A stretch of 64,000 bases of DNA from a virus (taxonomy: Duplodnaviria > Caudoviricetes): the IMG/VR virus record IMGVR_UViG_3300027759_000043; one strand, given 5' to 3'. The notes under the pieces are model-generated. The model saw only the letters and a list, made by a program, of their open reading frames with translations, made no database searches and was not told the DNA's origin. Shown one piece after another: positions 29,806 to 60,139 of the stretch (positions are counted from its first letter, which is position 1; each line of letters opens with the position of its first letter). The position numbers were made by a program, and so were the translations under genes.

Positions 29806-30795
29806 ATGCTTGATATACTGCAATATTTGCCTGCAAAACGACGACCCAGTCCACAAGGCTGGTTGAGTTTCAATGCGGTGTGTTGCGCCCATAATGGTAA
29901 TAGTCAGGACAAGCGCGGGCGTGGTGGGATCAAGGTAACTGAACAAGATTGGAGTTATCATTGCTTCAATTGCAGTTACACAGCCAGTTTTGTTCTAGGA
30001 CGCACAGTGGGTTTCAAAGCCCGAAGATTATTGAGTTGGATGGGTGTGCCCGATAACGAGATTGAAATGCTTAATCTTGAAAGTCTGCGGCATCGTAGCA
30101 TACACGGTATACTTGAAGATAGACAACGAGTATTCAATGCACTAAGTGCTATTGAGTTTGAAGAGTCAGATGACTTCCCACCTTTCTCTGAAGTGGTTAC
30201 ACCAGAAGTTCCTTACTATTGGAACTACATTCGTCGACGCGGTGTGCCAGAAGACTTCCCCATCATGACTTCTATCAAGAACGATGGCGTTCATTGGGTT
30301 AGGCCGTTTGTGTTAGTACCGTTCACATATGACAACAAGGTAGTAGGCTGGACTGCTAGATTTTTAGATGACAAACAACCCAAGTACATCAATCACTCAC
30401 AACCCGGTTATGTATTTGGCACAGACTTGCAACATGCTGACTGGCAACATGTGCTGGTGATGGAAGGCATCTTTGATGCACTTTCAATTGGTGGGCTTGC
30501 TGTGATGCACAACACCATCAGTGACAGCCAAGCAAGATTGATTCGCAGTCTTGGACGTGAAGTAACTGTGGTACCTGATCAAGATACAGCAGGTGTGGAG
30601 TTAATTGACCGTGCTGTAGAACTGGGCTGGGCCGTGAGCATACCTGAGTGGCCAGCGGGTTGCAAAGATGTTAATGACGCTGTGATAAAACTAGGCAGAC
30701 TAGGCACCTTGCTAACTATTATGTCAGCAAGAGAAACTAGTAAGATTAAAATAGAAATAAGGAAGAAGCAACTTGTTAAAAGAATACGGACTTGA
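29806..30795 (+). CDS. gp61: DNA primase (gp61-like, Zn-binding + TOPRIM)
   Basis: CCAH...HCFNC; VMEGIFDA; VVPDQD; KDVND. Confidence 0.9.
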   Translation: MLDILQYLPAKRRPSPQGWLSFNAVCCAHNGNSQDKRGRGGIKVTEQDWSYHCFNCSYTASFVLGRTVGFKARRLLSWMGVPDNEIEMLNLESLRHRSIHGILEDRQRVFNALSAIEFEESDDFPPFSEVVTPEVPYYWNYIRRRGVPEDFPIMTSIKNDGVHWVRPFVLVPFTYDNKVVGWTARFLDDKQPKYINHSQPGYVFGTDLQHADWQHVLVMEGIFDALSIGGLAVMHNTISDSQARLIRSLGREVTVVPDQDTAGVELIDRAVELGWAVSIPEWPAGCKDVNDAVIKLGRLGTLLTIMSARETSKIKIEIRKKQLVKRIRT

Positions 30796-32218
30796 TGTCC
30801 AAAGACTATTTCTAGAAATGATGTTGGAAGACGCAACAAGTTATGTGCGTGTTCAAAACATCTATAACCCACAGAACTTTGACAAAAGTTTGAGACCTGC
30901 GGCTGAGTTCATCAAAGAACACTCAGACAAACACAAGACCATGCCTGACAGGCAGCAGATTTCAGCGACCACGGGTGTTCGACTTGCACCAGTGCCGGAT
31001 TTGAATGAAGGACACTTTGACTGGTTCATGGGCGAGTTTGAAGCATTTACCCGACGTCAAGAACTTGAACGTGCTATTTTGAAATCGGCGGACTTGCTGG
31101 AAAAGGGCGAATTTGAGCCAGTGGAGAAACTGATCAAAGATGCAGTACAGATATCACTTACTAAAGACATGGGCACGGATTACTTTGCTGATCCCAAGGC
31201 TCGCATTGAGAAATACTTTAACTCGGGCGGCCAAGTAAGCACAGGTTGGCCACAACTGGATAGATTGTTGTACGGCGGATTCAGCCGTGGCGAACTAAAC
31301 ATTTTTGCCGGCGGTTCAGGTTCTGGCAAGAGTCTCGTGATGATGAACATTGCGCTAAACTGGTTGCAACAAGGACTTAGCGGTGTTTATATTACATTAG
31401 AATTGAGTGAAGAACTTACAAGTTTGAGAACTGATGCTATGTTAACAAACATGAGCACCAAAGACATTAGACGTGACATGGACACAACTGAACTTAAGGT
31501 CAAACTAGTAGCCAAGAAGTCCGGTAACTATCAGGTCAAGGGCTTGCCAGCACAGAGCAACATCAATGACATTCGCGCTTACTTGAAAGAGTATCAAATT
31601 CAGACAGGCAAGAAAGTAGACTTTGTGATGATTGACTACTTGGACTTGCTGATGCCAGTCAGTGCCAAAGTCAGTCCCAATGACTTGTTTGTTAAAGACA
31701 AGTATGTGAGTGAAGAATTGCGTAACTTGGCCAAAGAATTAGCAGTACTGATGGTTACTGCATCACAGTTGAATAGATCGGCTGTGGAAGAAGTTGAATT
31801 TGATCACTCGCATATTTCAGGTGGTATATCCAAGATCAATACTGCTGATAACGTGTTTGGTATCTTTACTAGCAGAGCAATGAAAGAGCGTGGCAAGTAT
31901 CAAATACAATGTATGAAGTCGCGCAGTTCAACAGGTGTTGGACAAAAGATTGATCTTGAATACAACATTGAAACCATGCGTATCACAGATGAAGGTGGTG
32001 ACGAAAAAGACAACTTCCGTGGAGGTGCCAAGCCCAGTATCATGGATTCAATCAAGGCCAAGAGTCAAGTTAAAACTGCCGAAGAAGGTGAATCTAGCAC
32101 ACCACCCTGGGAACGTGCCAAGCCTCGAGAAGACTTTGATCTAGAAGCACCCAAAGTCACTGCTGATGTGCAAAGTGCAAAATTAAAACAATTGCTGGGG
32201 CAAATTAAACAATCGTAA
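30773..32218 (+). CDS. gp41: Replicative DnaB-type helicase (gp41-like)
   Basis: STGW..LD, GGSGSGKS, TLELSE, IDYLDL, TASQLNR, KSR; TTG start. Confidence 0.92.
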   Translation: MLKEYGLDVQRLFLEMMLEDATSYVRVQNIYNPQNFDKSLRPAAEFIKEHSDKHKTMPDRQQISATTGVRLAPVPDLNEGHFDWFMGEFEAFTRRQELERAILKSADLLEKGEFEPVEKLIKDAVQISLTKDMGTDYFADPKARIEKYFNSGGQVSTGWPQLDRLLYGGFSRGELNIFAGGSGSGKSLVMMNIALNWLQQGLSGVYITLELSEELTSLRTDAMLTNMSTKDIRRDMDTTELKVKLVAKKSGNYQVKGLPAQSNINDIRAYLKEYQIQTGKKVDFVMIDYLDLLMPVSAKVSPNDLFVKDKYVSEELRNLAKELAVLMVTASQLNRSAVEEVEFDHSHISGGISKINTADNVFGIFTSRAMKERGKYQIQCMKSRSSTGVGQKIDLEYNIETMRITDEGGDEKDNFRGGAKPSIMDSIKAKSQVKTAEEGESSTPPWERAKPREDFDLEAPKVTADVQSAKLKQLLGQIKQS

Positions 32219-32292
32219 TATACATTGTTAATTGTGTCAATGGTTTGTCTAAAACTAATAACCGATAAATAAATCAAAGGCCACTGATAGTA

Positions 32293-32541
32293 ATGCAAAA
32301 ACGCACCCGTAGTTTGTTAGAAGAATTAGACTCAATGTATGTTGAGCGTGAGCGCCATCTAGTGATAGAAAGCCGTGCAAGCAACGTAATAGCCAGTGCT
32401 ATCAATCTGCTGGAACAAATTGACGCCACTTTTCCGCCTGAACAAGCAGAAAATCTAACTCGTAAATTGCTCAATGCTATTCGCACTAGAGATGCTGGCC
32501 GTTTTGAAAGAACAGTGAGACGTACCCATGCAGATTCATGA
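32293..32541 (+). CDS. Small late hypothetical protein
   Basis: TAAATA upstream; heads the virion-gene operon. Confidence 0.7.
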   Translation: MQKRTRSLLEELDSMYVERERHLVIESRASNVIASAINLLEQIDATFPPEQAENLTRKLLNAIRTRDAGRFERTVRRTHADS

Positions 32542-33415
32542 ACTAACCAAACGACAACTCAACGAAGTCAACATAGCAGGCCCTGGCGGTCTGGTGAACC
32601 GAGCGCAAACTGCATATCAAGCCGCAAAACAACCGGGTGCATTGGGCAGTCTAGTTAAATCTCAGCAGGCTGCACCTCCGGGTTCTAATCTATGGCAACG
32701 TGCAAAAACAGCCCTGGCATCCAATCCGCTGACCAGTTCATCGGCCCTGGCTCGCAGCCAATTTTCACAGGCACAATATGCCCAACGTACTGCGGCACAA
32801 GGAACACAAGTTGCAAAAAATCTTCAGAACAATTGGTTACAGTGGGAACAGTATTTGGCACAGACTTCGGGCATTCCCGCATTACCTCCTGCGCAGTATC
32901 GACAAACACTAGAAGATTGGTTTAAAAAGAAGGCCGTACCTGACACATATGATGCTGAGGATTTTTTAGACCCGACTGAAAACACTTTGGCCAATGCAAT
33001 CAAACAAACATTAGATCTAATAGCCGACGCCGCAGAAAAAAGCGATGCCACGGCCATGGAGAGAGAGTTTAAAGAATTGACAACGCTAATTCAACAATCA
33101 GCACAAGGTTTAACCAGCAAAGATGAGCAAGCAAAGTTAGCGGCTAGAGCACAATACAAACAAGCACAGCGCCAGGCGCAAGCCACTGGTGCCGCACAGC
33201 CACAAACCCAACAGCCACAAACCCAACAGCCACAGCAACAGGCACCCGTGGTAACGCCTGCTACGATAACACAAACTCTACAACAGTTTGGACTCAAACC
33301 CGGAACAAACTTGCAAAATTTTATACCACAAATGGTAGGTGCTGCCACAGTAGGATCAACAGGCAATGCCAACGCTGATAATCTACTCAAAGCCTTGGGA
33401 TTACAAGTACAATGA
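32528..33415 (+). CDS. Probable head-internal protein
   Basis: N-terminus MQIHEL..QLNE; Gln/Ala-rich. Confidence 0.55.
   Translation: MQIHELTKRQLNEVNIAGPGGLVNRAQTAYQAAKQPGALGSLVKSQQAAPPGSNLWQRAKTALASNPLTSSSALARSQFSQAQYAQRTAAQGTQVAKNLQNNWLQWEQYLAQTSGIPALPPAQYRQTLEDWFKKKAVPDTYDAEDFLDPTENTLANAIKQTLDLIADAAEKSDATAMEREFKELTTLIQQSAQGLTSKDEQAKLAARAQYKQAQRQAQATGAAQPQTQQPQTQQPQQQAPVVTPATITQTLQQFGLKPGTNLQNFIPQMVGAATVGSTGNANADNLLKALGLQVQ
33197..33241 (+). repeat. 15-nt tandem repeat (QPQTQ linker)
   Basis: CAGCCACAAACCCAA x2 plus a degenerate third copy. Confidence 0.85.
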
Positions 33416-35337
33416 ACTTATTTGAAGGTGGCAACGTATTTAAAGATGCTGACGGCAAACCACTCACACAACGCATCAATCAGACTGATGTGCCCAGTAC
33501 AGTAACATGGCTGGAACAACTCACAGGTCTAGAGTTTCCACGTGAACGTTGGTTGGGATCAACAGGCAAAGCACCCACATCAGGTGACTTGGATCTAGCA
33601 GTTGATGCCAGTAAAATCTCCAAAGAACAACTGGCCGCCAAGTTAGAAGCCTGGGCTCGTAGTCACGGTGAGGATCCTAGGAACTGGGTCAAGAAGTCGG
33701 GCGAAGTACACCTGCGTACTCCCATCACCGGCAGACCTGAACTTGGCTACGTACAAACAGACTTTATGTTTTTCCCCGACCTGGATTGGGGTACATTCTA
33801 CTATAATCAAACATTCCCAAGTGCCTACAAAGGCATGCATCGTGCTGTGCTAATGAGTAGCATAGCCAAACAACTGGGTCTCAAGATAGGTGCTAATGGC
33901 ATGTTCAGTCGTGCCACTAACAAATTGGTTAGTCAAGATCCTGACTACGTTGCCAAAGCCATACTAGGACCCAAAGCCACTCGAGAAGATCTGGGCAATG
34001 TAGAAAGCATTTATGCATTCCTGGCACGTGACAAAGACCGTGATGCCAAACTCCGAGACTTCCGTGATCAATTGGCACGTGACGGACTCAAAGAACCCAC
34101 ACAATTGGAAGAAAGCGGCGACGTTTACTTCTTGGCACGCCTACGTGATCGCATTGTGAACCAAGGCATGTATGCCTTGGTAGAGGCAGCCGCACCTCCA
34201 GCCGCTGCCGCACCTGTGGGTGGCAAAGCCAAGGGCATTGAGCACCTGGAAGATTACATATTTAGAAATGGCACAGCCGGTGTCAAGACAGCCCTGGCCA
34301 TTGTGGACAACTTCAAGGAAGATCCCAAGACTGCAAGCGTCAAATGGGACGGCAAGCCTGCTGTGGTATTTGGTCGCAAGCCCAGCACAGGCGAATTTGT
34401 ACTGACAGATGGATCAGGATTTGAGGCTGTGGGCTATGATGGCTTGTTTACCAGTCCCCAGGCCATTGAGGCCAACATGGCACAACGTGATGCCAGTGCC
34501 GCTGCCAAGGGCAACGTGGCCAACAGAGTTGAAACACTGTTACCAGTGTATCAAGGCATTTGGCCCTATCTTGAAGCCGCAACCCCTGAAAACTTCCGTG
34601 GTTATGTCAAGGGCGACTTGTTGTATACTACCACACCTCCTGTGGTAGCAGGCAATGTAGAATTCAAACCCAACACAGTGGAATATCGTATTCCTGTAAA
34701 AAGCAAACTAGGCACAGCAATTGCCGACAGTGACGTTGGTGTGGCAGTACACACCATGTATGCGGATGCTGGTGCTGCCAAACAACCTCTCAGCAGAGTC
34801 AAATTTAACCCTGTGCCGGGCCTGTTGTTGATTGAACCCATCTATGCTCGACCTGTGGAAATAGAAAATCCCTACGTAAAGAAAATCAAGAGTCTATTAC
34901 GAACAATGGGTCCTGCAATTGACACATTGTTCAACCCTGCAGAACTACGTGCTGCCAAGATCACTGATTTGGCCAAATTATGCGTAGATTATATCAACAA
35001 ACGTATCAATCCCGAATACCCTGCCTACACCGGAGACTTCTCAGACTTAGTGCCGGGCTTCATGAACTACTTGAAATCCACACAAACTCCGCAAAAGTTT
35101 CGCAACATTACAGAATACCTGCGTAGTCCTACTTCAAACGAGGGCGCACTGGCCGGTGCCTTTGTGTTGTTTGAATTGTTACACGATCTCAAACTGGACT
35201 TGCTGGGTAAACTGGATGCACAAGTTCCTGGCAACGAGGGATGGGTGTTTGCAACGCCAGCAGGCTATGGTAAAGCAGTAAATCGTTTTGATTTTACAGC
35301 CAGAAACCGCCAAAGAAACAACCCCACAACCACCTAA
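33412..35337 (+). CDS. Fusion of a Pol-beta-like nucleotidyltransferase and an ATP-dependent ligase-like (KxDG) domain; probable virion protein
   Basis: GS49-50..D59xD61..D117; then SVKWDG, KGD, NEGWVF, KAVNR. Confidence 0.7.
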   Translation: MNLFEGGNVFKDADGKPLTQRINQTDVPSTVTWLEQLTGLEFPRERWLGSTGKAPTSGDLDLAVDASKISKEQLAAKLEAWARSHGEDPRNWVKKSGEVHLRTPITGRPELGYVQTDFMFFPDLDWGTFYYNQTFPSAYKGMHRAVLMSSIAKQLGLKIGANGMFSRATNKLVSQDPDYVAKAILGPKATREDLGNVESIYAFLARDKDRDAKLRDFRDQLARDGLKEPTQLEESGDVYFLARLRDRIVNQGMYALVEAAAPPAAAAPVGGKAKGIEHLEDYIFRNGTAGVKTALAIVDNFKEDPKTASVKWDGKPAVVFGRKPSTGEFVLTDGSGFEAVGYDGLFTSPQAIEANMAQRDASAAAKGNVANRVETLLPVYQGIWPYLEAATPENFRGYVKGDLLYTTTPPVVAGNVEFKPNTVEYRIPVKSKLGTAIADSDVGVAVHTMYADAGAAKQPLSRVKFNPVPGLLLIEPIYARPVEIENPYVKKIKSLLRTMGPAIDTLFNPAELRAAKITDLAKLCVDYINKRINPEYPAYTGDFSDLVPGFMNYLKSTQTPQKFRNITEYLRSPTSNEGALAGAFVLFELLHDLKLDLLGKLDAQVPGNEGWVFATPAGYGKAVNRFDFTARNRQRNNPTTT

Positions 35338-35397: not shown

Positions 35398-35829
35398 ATG
35401 GCAGTATTTACAAAAACAAACGGTACCACCCAACCAGTATTCCACATGGACACTGGCAATGCGCAAATTGTTGGAACATCCAACATTGCGGCAACGGGTT
35501 CGGTCAACTTTCAAGGACCAAAACTAGACTTTTTCTCAGTGGTGGCCAATGGTAGTTTGACAACATCTGGTAATGTTAACGGTTACATCAACAACATTTT
35601 GCAAGCAATTCAGCAAAAAGGTACAGTTGCTATGTATCAAGTTAGCCCAGCGGCACCCACAGTGTTGAACTTGGCTATCTATCCAACTGATGCTTACACA
35701 GCAACAACGCTGTTGGCTCAGGCTAACACAAGCGCAACAGTTGCGTCTGGTGGTCAAAACTTGCAGTTGAACAGTGCAGCCGGTAACGCCGTGTTCACTT
35801 CAGCCGCAAGCAACTTCGCTCCAGTCTAA
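35398..35829 (+). CDS. Abundant small structural protein (capsid decoration/tail-like)
   Basis: TAAATA plus SD AGGAG, biased codons, Ala/Thr/Asn-rich, own terminator. Confidence 0.6.
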   Translation: MAVFTKTNGTTQPVFHMDTGNAQIVGTSNIAATGSVNFQGPKLDFFSVVANGSLTTSGNVNGYINNILQAIQQKGTVAMYQVSPAAPTVLNLAIYPTDAYTATTLLAQANTSATVASGGQNLQLNSAAGNAVFTSAASNFAPV

Positions 35830-35848: not shown

Positions 35849-35879
35849 AACCCTGGATGTAAAAAATCCAGGGTTTTTT
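35849..35879 (+). terminator. Intrinsic terminator
   Basis: AACCCTGGAT-N7-ATCCAGGGTT-TTTT. Confidence 0.9.
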
Positions 35880-39773: not shown

Positions 39774-40080
39774 CACAGCCAGAAACAAAATACAAAAATT
39801 AGTCACAGCCAAAGGTTACGCTGGTATTCGTCTTGGGGTAAAAACTACAGGTTGCAGTGGCCTTGCTTATGTGTTAGAATACGTTAAAGAATACACACCT
39901 GAACAGTATGTTATTAACTACGCACAAAATGATTTTGTGGTATTAGTAAATCAAAAAGACAATGTGTATCTTCAAAACATGACAGTAGACTATGTGCGTC
40001 AAGGCCTCAACGAAGGCTTTGACTTTTCAAATCCCAATGAACGTGATCGCTGTGGTTGCGGAGAAAGTTTTAGAGTTTAA
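39757..40080 (+). CDS. iscA: Fe-S A-type carrier IscA
   Basis: IRLGVKTTGCSGLAY, CGCGESF. Confidence 0.95.
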   Translation: MISLTDTARNKIQKLVTAKGYAGIRLGVKTTGCSGLAYVLEYVKEYTPEQYVINYAQNDFVVLVNQKDNVYLQNMTVDYVRQGLNEGFDFSNPNERDRCGCGESFRV

Positions 40081-40081
40081 T

Positions 40082-40798
40082 TTGTACAATCCAAAATTTG
40101 ATTATCAACCAATTCCTCGCGTGACAATAGAGGGTAAGCGTTACTATGCCACCCCAGATGGCAACAACTTACCCAGTGTGACCACAATCCTGGACCGAAC
40201 AAAACCCCCAGAAAAAGTTGAAGCACTTGCTCAATGGCGACGTCGTGTGGGCGCAGAAAAAGCACAACAAATCACAACCGAAGCCGCCAATCGTGGCACA
40301 CGTATGCATACCTATCTTGAACAGTATGTCAAGGAGGGAGCGATCAAAGAGCGCGGATCAAATCCTTTCTCCTGGCCCAGCCATGTGATGGCAGAAACTG
40401 TGATCAGAGATGGACTTAAAAATGTTACAGAATTTTGGGGTATTGAAGTTCCCTTATACTTTCCCTCCATTTACGCAGGCACAACAGATGGTGCAGGTAT
40501 ACACTTAAATGAAGAAAGCATATTAGATTACAAGCAAACCAACAAGCCCAAAAAGCGTGAATGGATTGACGATTATTTTGTACAACTGTGCGCCTACGCA
40601 GAAGCACACAATGAATTACACGGCACAAAAATACGCAAAGGTGTTATTTTGATGTGTGTCAAACCCGATCTAGATGAGCAACACAATATCATTGGAAAAC
40701 CCGAATACCAGGAATTTGTGTTAGAAGGTGCAGAATTTGATCGTTACCGAGATCTATGGTGGCGAAAGGTCGAGCAGTACTACATGCTAAATACATGA
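40082..40798 (+). CDS. PD-(D/E)XK exonuclease
   Basis: LPSVTTIL, RGTRMH, YAGTTD, LDYKQ, QLCAY; probable TTG start. Confidence 0.85.
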   Translation: MYNPKFDYQPIPRVTIEGKRYYATPDGNNLPSVTTILDRTKPPEKVEALAQWRRRVGAEKAQQITTEAANRGTRMHTYLEQYVKEGAIKERGSNPFSWPSHVMAETVIRDGLKNVTEFWGIEVPLYFPSIYAGTTDGAGIHLNEESILDYKQTNKPKKREWIDDYFVQLCAYAEAHNELHGTKIRKGVILMCVKPDLDEQHNIIGKPEYQEFVLEGAEFDRYRDLWWRKVEQYYMLNT

Positions 40799-52472: not shown

Positions 52473-53846
52473 ATGAATGAAACTGATTTCTCCAACGAAA
52501 GGTTTGACGGTGTAATGGCCGCAGGCTGGATACGTGATCTAGAAAGTTCAGACAGTCGCATACACAAAGAAAAAACAATTGAAAAAGCACTAATGGCCGC
52601 CAAGTTGGGCAGTGCCGATGCACAATGTTTTCTCTTTAACTGCTACCAGGCTTACAATCCTTTCTATACTTTTAATATCCGTCAAGTGCCTGAAACAGAG
52701 GGCTTAACCGGACGGCCTAACCCTTGGGTAAGTTTTTGGGCCTTGCTAGAAGCCCTGCGTACCCGATACATCACAGGTAATCGTGCCAGGGAAGCCATTG
52801 AACAAATGAGCCAAGAGTTTGACAGTGACGAGTGGAACAACTTGGCTCGTAGAGTCATGATCAAAGATCTGCGTTGTGGCATTTCAGAAAAAACACTAAA
52901 CAAAGTCTTGGGCAAAACCGAATACCGGATTCCTGTGTTTACTTGTCAGTTGGCACAGGACTCCACAGACCAACCCAAGAAACTCAAAGGCATCAAGCGC
53001 CTAGAAGTCAAACTGGATGGTGTACGTGTGTTGGCAGTAATTGATGGCGACAATATTACCCTGTTCAGTCGCAATGGCAAAGAGTTTGAGAACTTTCCAC
53101 AGATTGCAGATGCCATTGAAGATGCCCGCAAGCACTTTCAATTTGGACGTGGCACAGGCGGTCGCTTTGTGTTAGATGGTGAGATTGTGGGTGAAAGTTT
53201 CCAGAAACTCATGAAGCAGGCACATCGCAAGAGTGATGCTAAGACTGAAGGCATGGTATATCATATTTTTGATATACTTCCATTAGAGTCATTGCAAGAA
53301 GGCCATTGTAACATACAACAGTACAAACGTATTGAGTGGATTGAGAGTGCAAAAGATCGTCTTAAAGATACACCTTGTCTGCGAATCATGAATGGCTTGG
53401 AAGTAGACCTAGATACCGCTGAAGGGCATGACATCATGCAACGATTTGCCGAAGCGTCGGTAGCAGAAGGCTTTGAAGGCATCATGATCAAGAGTATGGA
53501 CGCACCTTATGAGTGCAAACGCTCAGACTTCTGGATGAAATGGAAACCCACTATTAGTGTTGATCTCAATATTGTGGGTTTTGAACAAGGTACTGGTCGC
53601 AATGCAGACCGGTTGGGTGCTATAATTTGTGAAGGAACAGATAATGACCGTAGAATTCGTGTTAATGTTGGTAGTGGGTTTAGTGATACTCTTCGTGATG
53701 AGTATTGGGCCAATAGGGATCAGTTACTTGGTCACTTGGTTGAAGTCCAAGCGGACGCAGTTACCCAAAACCAAGACGGAACCTACAGTCTCCGATTCCC
53801 AAGGTTCTTGAGATTTAGAGATTTTGAGGCCGGAGAAAAAGTTTGA
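52473..53846 (+). CDS. lig: ATP-dependent DNA ligase
   Basis: EVKLDGVR, LDGE, FDI, EGIMIK, WMKWKP, SLRFPRF. Confidence 0.95.
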   Translation: MNETDFSNERFDGVMAAGWIRDLESSDSRIHKEKTIEKALMAAKLGSADAQCFLFNCYQAYNPFYTFNIRQVPETEGLTGRPNPWVSFWALLEALRTRYITGNRAREAIEQMSQEFDSDEWNNLARRVMIKDLRCGISEKTLNKVLGKTEYRIPVFTCQLAQDSTDQPKKLKGIKRLEVKLDGVRVLAVIDGDNITLFSRNGKEFENFPQIADAIEDARKHFQFGRGTGGRFVLDGEIVGESFQKLMKQAHRKSDAKTEGMVYHIFDILPLESLQEGHCNIQQYKRIEWIESAKDRLKDTPCLRIMNGLEVDLDTAEGHDIMQRFAEASVAEGFEGIMIKSMDAPYECKRSDFWMKWKPTISVDLNIVGFEQGTGRNADRLGAIICEGTDNDRRIRVNVGSGFSDTLRDEYWANRDQLLGHLVEVQADAVTQNQDGTYSLRFPRFLRFRDFEAGEKV

Positions 53847-54839: not shown

Positions 54840-56078
54840 GTGCCTAAAAAAATCAAAACAGCAGAAGTAGAAACTGTAAATCCCGAGTATGACAAACTCT
54901 TAGAGGTGTTAAAGTTCACACCACGCACCTACAAGATTAGTATGTGGGGGTATGGTGGTGAAAAGGTCATGGGCACAGTAGACCGTGCGGTCTGGGACTA
55001 TTGCATGGAGAACCAAGTTGACTTGTCTGAAATTGCGTGGAGTGATGAAGAAACAGTGCAAGATGAAATGGGTCTTGATATCGATATGCTACCATTTACT
55101 CCTGGTAGTTGGTATGAATGTGATGACATGGTACACACTAACGGTGTTAGTCGTAATGCCGGAACACTACAAATCGAAGATGAAAATGGCACAGTAGTGT
55201 TTGAAAAATCCTTAGACGATTGTGACGGCAGTAGTGAAGACAGCCCAGTATGGAGTTGTAATGATGAAGCATGGGTTGGTAGTAAGCCTGCAGGTACTGT
55301 GGTGTTCATTGGCACCAGTAATGAAAAAGGCACATTCTTTGAAGGTGAGATTGAACTTACACAACCATTTGACATTGAAAAGTTGGTGCTGGGTTACGAT
55401 GACATCGACGGTGAAGAACTAGTTAATAGTGTTGAATACGATGGTGAAGATATTGATAACTGGGGTGGTAGCACAGACGGTAAGAGCAGTGACTTTGGAA
55501 TGTATCTTGTGAAAGACAGCAACACCTGGGAAACTTATGCTCCTGAAGAAAAAGACTGGGGTCATCCCCCGCATGGCACCAGTCCCGCCACTTGGGAACG
55601 ATCCGAGACATTCAAGTTTGATAAAGTCAAACCCACCTTGCCCGGTTACTATAGTTGTACCTGGAAGCATTTTGGAACCACATATGGGTCGGCCTACTGG
55701 GATGGCACACAGTTTGGTGAATGGGAATACGGCAAGTTCACGCCCATCACCGGAGAGATTGTGACTTGGTCAGGATACAACTGGGACACCACATCATGGG
55801 TTAATCAACCACCAGAACCTGTAGATGTTGCCTGTGACAACAAAAAGTGCGGTTGGATAGGAATGGCTGAAGAGCGTCGTACCGATGATGACTATAACGA
55901 CCATTGTCCCGAGTGTGATGGCACCGAGTTTACTTATATTGACTATGACCCAGACTCGGCAGTTGGACGTAAGAATCGTGCTAAGTACTGCAAAGAGTGG
56001 GATCCAGCAGTGGCACTAGATCGAATCGTAGCATCTGCAGATGAAGAACCGGCCAAGTGGCCAGCAACAAGACCTTAA
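54840..56078 (+). CDS. Acidic multi-domain hypothetical protein with a Zn ribbon
   Basis: SD AAGGAG; CDNKKC...HCPECD near the C-terminus. Confidence 0.75.
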   Translation: MPKKIKTAEVETVNPEYDKLLEVLKFTPRTYKISMWGYGGEKVMGTVDRAVWDYCMENQVDLSEIAWSDEETVQDEMGLDIDMLPFTPGSWYECDDMVHTNGVSRNAGTLQIEDENGTVVFEKSLDDCDGSSEDSPVWSCNDEAWVGSKPAGTVVFIGTSNEKGTFFEGEIELTQPFDIEKLVLGYDDIDGEELVNSVEYDGEDIDNWGGSTDGKSSDFGMYLVKDSNTWETYAPEEKDWGHPPHGTSPATWERSETFKFDKVKPTLPGYYSCTWKHFGTTYGSAYWDGTQFGEWEYGKFTPITGEIVTWSGYNWDTTSWVNQPPEPVDVACDNKKCGWIGMAEERRTDDDYNDHCPECDGTEFTYIDYDPDSAVGRKNRAKYCKEWDPAVALDRIVASADEEPAKWPATRP

Positions 56079-56089
56079 AGGAGAAAACT

Positions 56090-56779
56090 ATGAATGATAC
56101 ACTTATATTTAATGATGAACAATATCGTTCAGCCGAACAAATCAACTCGGCCATGGGCCGTGTTTACGGACATATGAGTTTAGCAGTGATTGTGAGTATG
56201 CTGATCAGTTACTGGGTAGGAACCACACCTGAGTTACTACAGTTCTTTTTTACTGGCATAACAAAATGGATTGTAATCTTTGCACCGCTAGCGGCAATAT
56301 TTGGTGTGAGCATGGTACTGGGTAACAATCCAAGTAAATCTGTAGCACAGTTGTGTTTGCATGGTTTCGCGGCCCTGATGGGGCTGAGTTTTTCAATGAT
56401 CTTTGCTGTGTTTGCTATGGGATCGATTGTTAGTGCATTTATGGGTGCGGCAATCTTGTTTGGTGTAATGAGTGGCTATGGCTACTTTACCAAGCGCAGT
56501 TTAGACAGTGTTGGTAAGTTTATGTTTGTAGGATTGATCGCCATCTGTATTGCCAGTATTGTGAACATCTTTATTGGCAGCACCGTGATGCAGATGGTGA
56601 TCTCCGCATTGGCTATCATTATCTTCTTGGGCCTTACTGCCTATGACACACAACAGATCCGCGAAGAACTTAGTGTGGAGACTACCGATGCCGCAGAAGT
56701 ACGTGGTGCGTTGACACTCTATATGGACTTTATCAACTTGTTCTTGAACTTATTGCAATTGTTTGGCGATAGAAAATAA
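56090..56779 (+). CDS. yccA: Bax inhibitor-1/YccA family membrane protein
   Basis: Seven hydrophobic segments; AYDTQ; ALTLYMDFINLF; SD AAGGAG. Confidence 0.92.
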   Translation: MNDTLIFNDEQYRSAEQINSAMGRVYGHMSLAVIVSMLISYWVGTTPELLQFFFTGITKWIVIFAPLAAIFGVSMVLGNNPSKSVAQLCLHGFAALMGLSFSMIFAVFAMGSIVSAFMGAAILFGVMSGYGYFTKRSLDSVGKFMFVGLIAICIASIVNIFIGSTVMQMVISALAIIIFLGLTAYDTQQIREELSVETTDAAEVRGALTLYMDFINLFLNLLQLFGDRK

Positions 56780-57359: not shown

Positions 57360-58931
57360 ATGATATTTGGTTTCAGCATCCTGGCCACAGCAATCTTACT
57401 CAGTTGTGTGGCCGCTTATTACTCTGTGGCAGGTCTTACCGCCATCTTCTCCGCGGCAACCATCCCTGTGATCATCATGGGTGGCAGCCTCGAACTTGGC
57501 AAGATTGTGGCCACTGTTTGGTTGCACAACAATTGGCGACGTGCTGGATTCCTGTTCAAAGCATATCTAGTGCCTGCGGTGGCATTCCTAATGTTACTGA
57601 CATCAATGGGAATTTTTGGCTATCTCTCCAAGGCCCATTCAGATCAAAGTCTAGTTTCAGGCGATGCAGTAGCAAAAGTAGCAATCTATGATGAAAAGAT
57701 CAAAATATCTCGTGACAATATTGAAGCCGACCGCAAGGCACTTAAACAGATGGATGAGGCTGTGGACCAAGTTATGGGCCGATCAGCAGATGAAAAAGGT
57801 GCCGACAAAGCAGTTGCAATACGAAGAGGCCAGCAACGAGAACGGGCTAGGATACTTGCTGACATCGAAACCGAACAGAAAAAGATTACTAATCTTAATG
57901 AAGAGCGGGCACCACTAGCGGCCGAGTTCCGCAAGGTTGAAAGCGAAGTTGGGCCTATCAAATACATTGCCGCACTTGTATATGGAGACAATCCTGACTC
58001 TAATGTGCTAGAGCGAGCAGTACGTTTAGTAATCATTATGATTGTGTTGGTATTTGACCCACTGGCCTTGACTTTGATCCTGGCAGCCAACAAACAATTT
58101 CAATGGGCCAGAGAAGGCACCGGAGGCTTTGTGCATGACGAGCCCCGGTACGAGCCTGATAATGGTCCGCTAACTGAAAATCAAATTGAACAACTAAAAG
58201 AATCAGTGCCAGAGCCGCCTGATGATCCTATACCTTGTTACAAGTGTGGTACCTCGTTAGTTGACGCTCCGGGTATTGGACTGTTCTGCCCCAACAAAGA
58301 ATGTGACGTTATAGATAATGTCAAAGGTGAGGAACCTGTTGAATTTGAATCAATTGAAATTGAATACAAGTTTTTAGACGAACATCATGAACCTGATCTC
58401 CATGTATACGATGATGAACGCTTGGTATCAAAATTTGACAAGATGCAAAATTTAGAACGACCAGGAGACTACATAACACCACCTGACGAGACTGATGCAG
58501 AAAAAGAAGCCAAGCGGCTGTGGAAAGCCGAACACCCTGATGGAACTGTAAAAGAACAAAGAAGATTGCACGAAGTAGGCGCCATAGACACATTACCGTG
58601 GCAGGGCTATATCAATCTTCAAGCAGACAATGATGGTAGTATTTCAAGTACCGGTCGATTGCTGGGCTTTGGTATCAAGTTCCCAGAGAATCCAGCCAAA
58701 GGTGATTCATTTATTAGGGTAGATCAAATGCCCAGTGCCCTGTACAAATACAATGGCACCAAGTGGATTGAGGTTGACAAAGGGCTCAGTGACCAGTATG
58801 CTTATGACACGGCCTATATTGATCATTTGATTGAAAAACTCACTACCGGTGAGTATGATCCTGAATTATTAAACGAAGCAGAAAGAGAACAAGTGGCACA
58901 ACGCTTACAAACCAACACAAAAGGTGCATGA
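57360..58931 (+). CDS. Membrane-anchored coiled-coil protein with a Zn ribbon and acidic C-terminal region
   Basis: N-terminal TMs, long heptads, further TM, CYKC...CPNKEC. Confidence 0.75.
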   Translation: MIFGFSILATAILLSCVAAYYSVAGLTAIFSAATIPVIIMGGSLELGKIVATVWLHNNWRRAGFLFKAYLVPAVAFLMLLTSMGIFGYLSKAHSDQSLVSGDAVAKVAIYDEKIKISRDNIEADRKALKQMDEAVDQVMGRSADEKGADKAVAIRRGQQRERARILADIETEQKKITNLNEERAPLAAEFRKVESEVGPIKYIAALVYGDNPDSNVLERAVRLVIIMIVLVFDPLALTLILAANKQFQWAREGTGGFVHDEPRYEPDNGPLTENQIEQLKESVPEPPDDPIPCYKCGTSLVDAPGIGLFCPNKECDVIDNVKGEEPVEFESIEIEYKFLDEHHEPDLHVYDDERLVSKFDKMQNLERPGDYITPPDETDAEKEAKRLWKAEHPDGTVKEQRRLHEVGAIDTLPWQGYINLQADNDGSISSTGRLLGFGIKFPENPAKGDSFIRVDQMPSALYKYNGTKWIEVDKGLSDQYAYDTAYIDHLIEKLTTGEYDPELLNEAEREQVAQRLQTNTKGA

Positions 58932-60139
58932 TGGCATCAGATTTACACAACACCTGCAGTTTCTGCGGCAAGCACAAAGACTCGGTAAAAAAACTCATAG
59001 TAGGCGAAAAAGTAGGCATTTGTAATGAGTGCGTGGATTTTTGTCAAGGCTTGTTAATTGACGAAACCCCTCAAGACAGCACAACTGCTCCAGTAACCCC
59101 TAGAAAACTAGATCCTGTTGTACTCAAAGAATATTTAGATCAGTACGTGATTGGACAAGACTCGGCCAAGATCATGTTGAGTGTGGCCATTGTGAATCAC
59201 TACAAACGTATCAACAAGACCACAAACGAACCTGAACTAGAAAAAGCCAATGTGCTTATGTTGGGGCCTACAGGTTCGGGCAAGACCTTGTTGGCCAAGA
59301 GTGTGGCACGTTATCTTGATGTACCATTTGCTATTGCTGATGCCACTAGTATTACAGAAGCAGGCTATGTGGGCGATGATGTGGAAAGTCTTATCACAAG
59401 ATTGTATACTGCGGCTGATGGTGACATAAACAGAACACAACGTGGCATTATTTTTGTGGACGAGATTGACAAAATTGCTCGCAAAGGTGAGAGTGCCAGT
59501 ATCACTAGAGATGTGTCAGGTGAAGGAGTACAACAGGCCTTGCTCAAGATGGTAGAAGGTACTGTGTGTCGTATACCAGCAGGTGGCGGCCGGAAACACC
59601 CATCAGGGGACATGATTGAAATCAACACACGCAACATCTTGTTTATTGCAGGTGGTGCATTTGTGGGCCTGGATTCAATTGTTAAAAATCGTGTGCAAGG
59701 TACCAGTATCGGCTTTGGTGCCAAGGTAGAAAGCGATGCAGACACTAACCTTGCACTTACCACACCTGACGACTTGGTCAAGTATGGAATGATTCCAGAA
59801 TTTGTGGGACGTTTTCCTAACTGGGTTGGTCTACAAGAACTTTCTAAATCAGATCTAGTACACATTCTTACTGGTGTAAAAAACAACTTTGTTGATCAAT
59901 ATAAATGGTTGTTTGCTGAAGATGGTGTAGAGTTACAGTTTACAGACCCAGCATTGGATACTATTGCTGAACGAACTCTACTTAGCAAAACAGGTGCTCG
60001 AGGACTGCACAGCGAACTAGAACGTGTGCTGATGCCACACATGTACAACCTCAAACGCTACCCTGGCATGGGAATAAAGTGCGTGGAAATTGGCCCTGCT
60101 TTGGTAAATATTCCTATAGCACTAGAGGGCACAAATTGA
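58928..60139 (+). CDS. clpX: ClpX AAA+ unfoldase
   Basis: CSFCGK...CNEC Zn domain, [20 protein letters not shown] loop, GARGL. Confidence 0.97.

Follow-up and report, generated by a model that had tools for sequence, protein, structure and literature searches.

This analysis concerns an open reading frame (ORF) at 33412-35337 on the + strand of a 64,000-nucleotide stretch of DNA, referred to here as the window, from IMG/VR virus record IMGVR_UViG_3300027759_000043 (Duplodnaviria; Caudoviricetes). The source is a very large freshwater phage, and the 641-residue product of the ORF is a fusion of two domains. The N-terminal domain resembles a minimal family X polymerase (PolX), and the C-terminal domain belongs to the Pfam family DUF6267 and is predicted to have the fold of ligase-type covalent nucleotidyltransferases. 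Both fold assignments come from structure models and are held with high confidence. From the predicted folds, the motifs, their conservation, and the linkage of the two domains across relatives, the protein is read as a two-enzyme, fill-and-seal protein for broken nucleic acid, a reading that as a whole is given slightly better than even chances. Activities, substrate, packaging, and cleavage are proposed on that basis.

In the proposed mechanism, the PolX-like domain would fill a short gap or extend a 3'-OH on a templated substrate, with its C-terminal subdomain closing on the nascent base pair. Lysine 311 of the KxDG motif would take up AMP and hand it to the 5'-phosphate, and the DUF6267 ligase domain would then seal the remaining nick. 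The parts of the fusion ORF are as follows.

33412-35337, + strand: whole ORF, consisting of PolX-like domain, linker, and DUF6267 ligase-fold domain; ATG start, open frame, 641 amino acids (aa)
33412-34005, + strand: residues 1-198, minimal family-X-polymerase-like core (palm and C-terminal subdomain), from the model, Foldseek, and VIA-align
33418-33426, + strand: L3-F-E5, candidate T4-type prohead-protease site abutting the invariant G6-G7-N, from homologue conservation
33556-33594, + strand: G49-S50...S57-G58-D59-L-D61, Pol beta-type nucleotide- and metal-binding motif, from conservation
33760-33762, + strand: D117, candidate third catalytic carboxylate on the VQTDFMF strand, from conservation and the model
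34006-34221, + strand: residues 199-270, helical extension and Ala/Pro linker with LKE (226), LEE (232), the helix FLARLRDRIVNQGM, and LVE (256); predicted local distance difference test (pLDDT) score 58-79
34237-35307, + strand: residues 276-632, DUF6267, predicted ligase-type covalent nucleotidyltransferase fold, from Pfam PF19782, the model, and VIA-align
34342-34353, + strand: K311-W-D313-G314, motif I with the candidate nucleotidylated lysine, invariant in 67 sequences
35236-35286, + strand: E609-G610-W-V-F (motif IV) and K621-A-V-N-R625 (motif V-like), from conservation; adjacent strands in the model

Predicted folds and conserved motifs

The N-terminal domain was aligned across 57 diverse sequences from an exhaustive HMMER search. 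D61 is invariant among them, and G49, G58, D59, and D117 are each at least 90% conserved. The palm signature of family X (hG[GS]...DxD and a third carboxylate) is present as G49-S50, D59, D61, and D117. The same motifs (L48-G49-S50, D59-L-D61, and D117 within VQTDFMF) had been picked out in an earlier reading made from the letters alone, termed here the sequence-only reading, and both they and the ORF itself are real and conserved.

The model of this domain is confident, with a pLDDT of 91.6. Foldseek returned Thermus PolX and Pol lambda with an E-value of 4e-5 and a probability of 1.00. VIA-align, a structure search independent of Foldseek, gave family X polymerases in all of its top 10 rows (Z 7.8-10.8, 153-181 residues aligned). 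Pol beta aligns over 163 residues with a Z of 10.8 and a root-mean-square deviation of 3.2 Å, and Pol X of African swine fever virus (ASFV) aligns over 156 of 176 residues with a Z of 9.3. Nucleotidyltransferases outside family X have Z values of 7 or less and align just the palm, a segment of about 84 residues. In the predicted structure, the C-terminal subdomain is packed on the palm as it is in Pol beta, Pol lambda, and ASFV Pol X.

With a length of some 200 residues, the domain lacks the 8-kDa deoxyribose phosphate (dRP)-lyase domain and the helix-hairpin-helix (HhH) subdomain; the alignments begin at about residue 98-102 of Pol beta. On the model, this absence excludes the canonical Pol beta/lambda type but not the minimal type, because ASFV Pol X is also without the 8-kDa and HhH parts. 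As modeled, the N-terminal domain is a minimal PolX-like unit composed of palm and C-terminal subdomain.

Two other identities were considered for this domain and rejected. The sequence-only reading had called it CCA-type. The CCA-adding enzyme is found at rank 50 in VIA-align with a Z of 4.3 and the palm alone aligned, the match to Pol beta and ASFV Pol X is far better, and Pfam gives no match. Identity with RlaP was rejected since there is no match to PF10127 and the second subdomain is of the PolX type, not helical as in PfRlaP. The PolX-like fold therefore would indicate templated gap filling rather than untemplated repair of a tRNA 3' end.

The C-terminal domain matches Pfam PF19782 (DUF6267) with an E-value of 1.1e-26 and 94.5 bits against a cut-off of 27, residues 276-632 covering profile positions 4-371 of 376. 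Its alignment contains 67 diverse sequences, also from an exhaustive HMMER search. K311, D313, G314, E609, G610, and R625 do not vary among them, and conservation of D402 and K621 is 90% or higher. Conserved motifs follow in order on strands of the model (GD402LLY, F-x-P-N at 418-421, E609-G610-WVF, and K621-x-x-x-R625). Motif III has an Asp where ligases usually have a Glu, and motif V reads K-x3-R instead of K-x-K. The ligase motifs named in the sequence-only reading (SVK311-W-D313-G314, VKGD402LLY, NE609-G610-WVF, and GK621-AVN-R625) are all in place.

The model of the C-terminal domain is also confident (pLDDT 92.4). All of the top 33 VIA-align rows are ligases or capping enzymes, with Z values of 4.8-8.0 and 139-198 residues aligned. 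RNA ligases are narrowly at the top (NgrRnl Z 8.0, Trl1 7.3, REL1 7.3, Rnl2 6.8, and Rnl1 6.7), DNA ligases have Z values of 6-6.8, and capping enzymes have values of about 5. Foldseek against PDB and Swiss-Prot models returned almost only ligases with E-values of 0.01 or worse; because these rows are weak, the fold call rests on VIA-align and the motifs. No oligonucleotide/oligosaccharide-binding (OB) domain is present, as had been read from the sequence: the protein stops 16 residues past motif V, no beta-barrel is seen in the model, and the stretch between motif IIIa and motif IV is an inserted helical module of about 120 residues. The structural rows, the invariant KxDG and EG, and the near-invariant motif V lysine place DUF6267 in the ligase fold, with moderate structural support. 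On these models, the earlier view of two catalytic domains, the second with a ligase fold and a DUF6267 match, is upheld.

Several results weigh against the fill-and-seal reading at this level. Matches had been expected for each half of the protein. Those expected for the C-terminal half were found; for the N-terminal half the structure is PolX-like, and residues 1-275 have no real match in Pfam or NCBIfam. Against PDB sequences, phmmer and profile searches with the N-terminal domain gave chance-level rows only. The C-terminal domain matches DUF6267 alone in Pfam at E-values up to 10, with no match to Rnl1 (PF09511) or Rnl2 (PF09414), and profile and sequence searches of NCBIfam and PDB sequences gave no link to a ligase family beyond DUF6267. 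An hhalign comparison of the C-terminal domain profile with the DNA ligase encoded elsewhere in the window gave no signal. The structural scores of the C-terminal domain are middling (Z at most 8), and its nearest structural rows are RNA ligases, which are OB-less like the domain itself.

Domain linkage and gene neighborhood

The fusion is frequent in metagenomes. More than 3900 homologues were found, the full-length ones at 68-95% identity, on contigs of up to 358 kb. DUF6267 is present in about 290 cyanophage records of the phage collection. Domain linkage was surveyed in 150 representatives (50% clustering), which can be sorted into N-to-C fusions, C-to-N fusions, and proteins with either domain alone. 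Longer fusions add a HIGH-type nucleotidyltransferase (CTP_transf_like, in 7 of the 10 examined), HAD phosphatases (NT5C and DUF2608), and DUF5661; the NT5C-type nucleotidase domain is present in one fusion. Pfam shows no CTP_transf_like domain in the fusion protein of the window.

The separate genes also lie near one another or near a ligase-like gene. Among cultured phages, the gene immediately before the PolX-like gene of Atu_ph07 is RNA_ligase-like and distinct from DUF6267, with a weak RNA_ligase match (PF09414, E 0.002). The corresponding gene of Sinorhizobium phage Phosso matches RNA_ligase at chance level (E 0.085) and has a KLDG motif recognized by eye; it is probably also an RNA_ligase-like gene distinct from DUF6267. 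The DUF6267-like gp228 of Pseudomonas phage PA5oct lies three genes upstream of the PolX-like gp231. The cyanophage S-WAM1 has a CTP_transf_like gene, annotated as a "cytitidyltransferase", directly after DUF6267, and the two are fused in S-PM2. Downstream of DUF6267 in the pelagiphage HTVC008M are a 170-aa ORF, an AAA_33/Zeta-type kinase, and then a CTP_transf_like protein.

The helix FLARLRDRIVNQGM (residues 238-252) is amphipathic and strongly conserved and immediately precedes the linker [LI]-x-E. Since it is also found at the N-terminus of some standalone DUF6267 proteins (P0162 and P0187), it goes together with the ligase domain. This helix may be a docking or targeting element.

A distant homologue (39% and 33% identity) on IMG/VR contig G001, at approximately 16.3-19.4 kb (L024 1474-3993 and L025 1-2478), is interrupted immediately behind motif I (KWDG|CIAGDS...). 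The first ORF carries an intein N-half (PF14890, E 9e-7), and between it and the second ORF lies a free ORF of 257 aa that matches HNH weakly. The second ORF begins with an intein C-half ending in ...LIHN|SPAIVFGR, and the rest of DUF6267 comes after it. The arrangement resembles that of a split intein, in which case trans-splicing would be required to restore the fusion. Inteins typically target essential active-site motifs, and this position counts in favor of the fold assignment.

Features of the window outside the fusion ORF that bear on its setting are listed here.

32265-32275, + strand: GATAAATAAAT, T4-late-type promoter-like motif 21 nucleotides before ORF 32293, from a motif scan
32293-33415, + strand: upstream pair of overlapping ORFs (82 aa and 295 aa), translationally coupled to the fusion gene, from ORF overlaps
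52473-53846, + strand: canonical ATP-dependent DNA ligase outside the fusion, with PF01068 (E 1.4e-20) and OB domain PF14743

An ATGA junction joins the fusion gene to the upstream ORF of 295 aa (32528-33415), the start codon of the former overlapping the stop codon of the latter. The 295-aa ORF starts with MQIHE and itself overlaps the 82-aa ORF (32293-32541). Because the three ORFs overlap successively, they form one coupled unit. Homologues of the 82-aa ORF are found at the same relative place in Phosso (46% identity) and PA5oct (42%). Upstream on the same strand are genes for a primase (29806-30795) and a DnaB-type helicase (30773-32218). Downstream of the fusion gene are several small ORFs without assignment, followed by ribonucleotide reductase, a radical SAM enzyme, and the DNA ligase. 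The order of primase, helicase, small ORFs, fusion, small ORFs, and ribonucleotide reductase is shared by a 331-kb metagenomic contig, and the position after the helicase is also found in Phosso, Atu_ph07, HTVC008M, and S-WAM1. BLAST of ORFs 32528, 35398, 35899, 36588, and 37917 against the corresponding neighborhoods of PA5oct, Phosso, Atu_ph07, HTVC008M, and S-WAM1 gave no homologue except one chance-level row.

Three other genes in the window are worth recording. A 268-aa ORF at 39992-40798, approximately 4.7 kb downstream of the fusion, has a weak match to PD-(D/E)XK nucleases (E 4e-4, below the cut-off). A Bax inhibitor-1 family membrane protein is encoded at 56057-56779 (PF01027, E 1e-52), and a ClpX-type AAA+ unfoldase with a zinc finger at 58928-60139 (PF07724 and PF06689).

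Leaders, candidate protease sites, and packaging

Leaders of T4 internal proteins serve for capsid targeting and are processed by gp21 at [LI]-x-E. The fusion resembles the capsid-targeted T4 proteins IPI-III and Alt, which have short N-terminal leaders ending in [LI]-x-E, and a gp21-type protease gene (PF03420, Peptidase_S77) was found in all five relatives searched (PA5oct, Phosso, Atu_ph07, HTVC008M, and contig G001). Loading into the prohead is proposed for the fusion because an [LI]-x-E site precedes each domain and because M-x-[IL]-x-E starts occur in a block. That the protein is loaded and then trimmed or cut by a T4 gp21-type protease is given somewhat less than even chances, and its cleavage into two separate enzymes is doubtful. 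Loading and trimming would make the enzyme available at genome entry.

The sites in question are present as the sequence-only reading had them (an M-N-L-F-E start, L-E-E at 232, and L-V-E at 256), and there is one more, L-K-E at 226; the last three lie in the low-confidence linker. In homologues, [LI]xEGG is found within the first 30 residues in 120 of 120 close homologues, and behind the VNQGM linker helix an [LI]xE is present in 116 of 116 close homologues and the majority of the distant ones. In most homologues each domain has an [LI]-x-E immediately ahead of its first invariant residues (GGN and ARIxHxED). Leaders are also seen at the start of standalone DUF6267 proteins, for example MKIKDLLVE, MRFRDLITE, and MNIFEILTE. 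The spacer between leader and domain varies in length; for this reason the leaders look separable rather than part of the fold.

M-x-[IL]-x-E starts are present in 4 of the 64 + strand ORFs where 0.57 would be expected (Poisson P 0.003), and all four lie within eight consecutive genes (P 0.003 given four matches); the pattern was set after the data had been viewed, and these P values are indicative only. The four starts, between 32528 and 38255 of the window, are MQIHE (32528), MNLFE (33412), MKLQE (37030), and MRIDE (37917). They are kept in the 331-kb relative, whose fusion begins with MKTLRILLE-GGN, a longer leader with the same end point. In PA5oct, the PolX-like EST35_0231 and EST35_0237, a homologue of ORF 37030, are annotated as "structural protein, ESI-MS/MS" (electrospray ionization tandem mass spectrometry), as are most genes of the syntenic block. 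ORF 37030 also matches a PHROG family of "virion structural protein".

Other observations speak against packaging. The [LI]xE before GGN or ARIxHxED is kept also where the domains are internal, and the conserved [LI]xE may simply be part of the fold. The N-terminal site of the fusion is just five residues long and abuts the conserved fold. The 93-protein virion list of PA5oct includes, according to its authors, seven "virion-unrelated enzymes", and the DUF6267-like gp228 was undetected in virions per its annotation. The DUF6267 protein of S-WAM1 has no leader.

The same observations are consistent with a cytoplasmic replication or repair factor that has the same chemistry, acting for example on Okazaki fragments or in nick patching, and that is neither packaged nor cleaved, its [LI]-x-E sites being structural. 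This is a realistic alternative, though clearly short of even chances. The gene, with the small ORFs coupled to it, lies directly downstream of the primase and DnaB genes on the same strand with no terminator found between them, and the placement recurs in Phosso, Atu_ph07, HTVC008M, S-WAM1, and the 331-kb contig. It accounts less well for the number and clustering of the M-x-[IL]-x-E starts, which are unlikely by chance and are kept in a relative, for the variable spacers behind the leaders of standalone proteins, and for the mass-spectrometry annotations on two homologues of the syntenic block in PA5oct. A canonical DNA ligase for replication is also already present.

The most extended form of the packaging proposal is an injected repair kit. 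In it, the leader-targeted protein would be cut into a free mini-PolX and a free DUF6267 ligase that are ejected with the genome and mend nicks, gaps, and damaged ends in the incoming DNA before gene expression. It is regarded as rather improbable.

Promoter-like motifs offer circumstantial evidence of late timing. The TAAATA core has 32 sites on the + strand, 17 of them within 40 nucleotides upstream of a start codon, often 4-10 nucleotides before the ATG. ATAAATA lies 21 nucleotides before ORF 32293, and TAAATA cores also precede 35398, 35899, 36328, and 37030. The core is also found before the ordinary DNA ligase gene; it is therefore no specific mark of virion genes, a further point against packaging. 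The T4 late consensus TATAAATA is not enriched on the + strand of the window (3 sites against 2.5 expected), and scans for sigma-70 promoters and terminators gave counts no higher than those of shuffled sequence. A late operon had been claimed for the gene in the sequence-only reading. The claim is partly borne out: the ATAAATA motif before ORF 32293 agrees with it, but it is not evident from the primase and DnaB helicase genes immediately upstream.

One small ORF of the region stands apart. ORF 35398-35829 (143 aa, without a family match) has its own CATAAATA motif and an AGGAG ribosome-binding site, and the strongest terminator-like hairpin of the region (a 10-base-pair stem and a T-run) is located 3' of it at 35849-35875. 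The promoter-like motif, ribosome-binding site, and downstream hairpin suggest a separately and probably highly expressed small protein. By eye, its N-terminus resembles those of PA5oct 0233 and 0234 and Phosso 450; BLAST gave no match.

DNA or RNA as substrate, and known systems

DNA, or DNA with a 3'-terminal ribonucleotide as in LigD-type repair, is moderately favored over RNA as the substrate. The lean toward DNA has four grounds. The second subdomain of PolX, which reads the templated base pair in known members, is present. The gene sits in replication modules in the window, Phosso, Atu_ph07, HTVC008M, and S-WAM1. The published viral PolX-ligase fusion, PgVPolX, does base excision repair. 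Finally, a genome profile search of HTVC008M and S-WAM1, both T4-like marine phages, found no PF01068 or PF01653 DNA ligase. In HTVC008M no Rnl1 or Rnl2 was found either, which leaves DUF6267 as the only ligase-fold gene found there. Located in the replication module, DUF6267 is a candidate for the missing ligase of HTVC008M and S-WAM1.

The presence of the DNA ligase at 52473 had been noted in the sequence-only reading and taken to imply an RNA role for the fusion. The ligase is confirmed; the argument built on it does not hold. Contig G001, Phosso, and Atu_ph07 carry canonical Rnl1 and Rnl2 elsewhere in the genome, so the PolX-linked ligase is an extra one beside both kinds, and the two T4-like marine phages with DUF6267 that were checked have no canonical DNA ligase. 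The fusion probably has a specialized task, since it is an extra ligase beside the ordinary DNA ligase of the phage.

Repair of RNA is the main competing substrate assignment. Here, the polymerase-like domain would restore one or a few nucleotides at an RNA 3' end cut by a host anticodon nuclease, as RlaP does, and DUF6267 would reseal the tRNA. The top structural rows of the C-terminal domain are RNA ligases (NgrRnl Z 8.0), and absence of an OB domain is typical of them; however, RNA and DNA ligases differ by less than 2 in Z on these models, which is too close to decide the substrate. The partner ligases in Atu_ph07 and Phosso match Pfam RNA_ligase weakly, an AAA_33/Pnk-type kinase lies two genes downstream of DUF6267 in HTVC008M, and HAD phosphatases occur in the fusions. 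Published RNA-repair sets show the same grouping of ligase, nucleotidyltransferase, kinase, and phosphatase, which also counts against a DNA fill-and-seal enzyme, and the pairing of an RNA ligase with RlaP, which adds 1-2 nucleoside monophosphates to damaged RNA, is published for jumbo phages. Set against this, the N-terminal domain is PolX-like with a C-terminal subdomain and has no PF10127 match, the second domain of RlaP being helical. Relatives with the domain pair already have canonical Rnl1 and Rnl2, the gene is located in replication modules, and in the two T4-like marine phages checked, which lack a DNA ligase, no ligase-fold gene other than DUF6267 was found. RNA repair is accordingly considered unlikely.

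A function outside repair, with the KxDG domain and a HIGH-type (NMNAT/PPAT-like) partner serving nucleotide- or NAD-linked chemistry or the capping or modification of nucleic-acid ends, is very improbable: CTP_transf_like domains are fused or adjacent to DUF6267 in 7 of 10 long fusions and in S-PM2, S-WAM1, and HTVC008M, one fusion has an NT5C-type nucleotidase domain, and capping enzymes share the fold, but ligases outrank capping enzymes structurally (Z 6-8 against about 5), DUF6267 lacks the OB domain of capping enzymes, a PolX-like partner makes sense only on a primer terminus, and the protein of the window contains no CTP_transf_like domain.

Read as a fill-and-seal enzyme, the fusion can be compared with several known systems. 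The minimal layout of the polymerase domain, palm plus C-terminal subdomain, is most closely matched in structure by ASFV Pol X, and ASFV ligase is among the structural rows of the C-terminal domain (Z 6.2). ASFV Pol X and ASFV ligase are both found in the virion. Unlike the fusion, ASFV encodes polymerase and ligase in two genes, and the ligase includes an OB domain as well as a DNA-binding domain at its N-terminus. PDB sequence and profile searches detected no sequence similarity between ASFV Pol X and the protein of the window.

Bacterial LigD, an enzyme of non-homologous end joining, is similar to the fusion in that polymerase and ligase share one polypeptide, in some cases with a phosphoesterase that cleans ends. 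The LigD polymerase adds ribonucleotides, and the ligase preferentially joins ends carrying a 3' ribonucleotide. In the structure search with the C-terminal domain, the ligase domain of LigD was returned with a Z of 5.7. LigD differs in the fold of its polymerase, which is that of archaeo-eukaryotic primases and not of PolX, in the OB domain of its ligase, and in its cooperation with Ku.

Among published proteins, the fusion is closest to PgVPolX of Phaeocystis globosa virus 16T, a PolX-ligase fusion shown to couple gap filling with nick sealing in base excision repair (PMC5537341). PgVPolX is composed of a full Pol beta-like core with dRP/apurinic-apyrimidinic (AP) lyase activity and an NAD+-dependent LigA-type ligase (PMC5537341). 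The protein of the window instead has a minimal polymerase without 8-kDa and HhH parts and an OB-less DUF6267 ligase domain, and its host is bacterial. In modules of RlaP and RNA ligase from bacteria and jumbo phages, a damaged 3' end is extended before sealing (PMC7824862, PMC12776372). Like the fusion, these tie a nucleotidyltransferase of the Pol beta superfamily to a ligase, with kinases and phosphatases nearby. RlaP differs in belonging to PF10127, in its helical second domain, and in its untemplated action on RNA.

What sets the fusion apart from PgVPolX, ASFV, LigD, and RlaP is the combination of a sequence-orphan minimal PolX-like domain with an OB-less, Pfam-orphan ligase fold, its occurrence in phages, and its features suggestive of head targeting. 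Family X is absent from the phage enzymes listed in a 2022 review of phage DNA polymerases. In the literature searched, no mention of DUF6267 was found, and likewise none of "cytitidyltransferase".

DUF6267 is a large orphan family, and its placement in the ligase fold with an invariant KxDG lysine makes the family directly testable. It is also a concrete candidate for the long-noted ligase gap of T4-like marine phages. An OB-less ligase coupled to a small polymerase is of possible practical interest as a reagent. The minimal PolX-like domain, which is widespread in jumbo phages, would add a class of repair polymerase to phage biology. Packaging, if it occurs, would make the protein a case of DNA-repair enzymes that enter the cell together with a phage genome. 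An injected repair kit, if true, would be the phage counterpart of the repair enzymes reported in ASFV particles, and, by extension, the ligase lacking in T4-like cyanophages and pelagiphages would be DUF6267.

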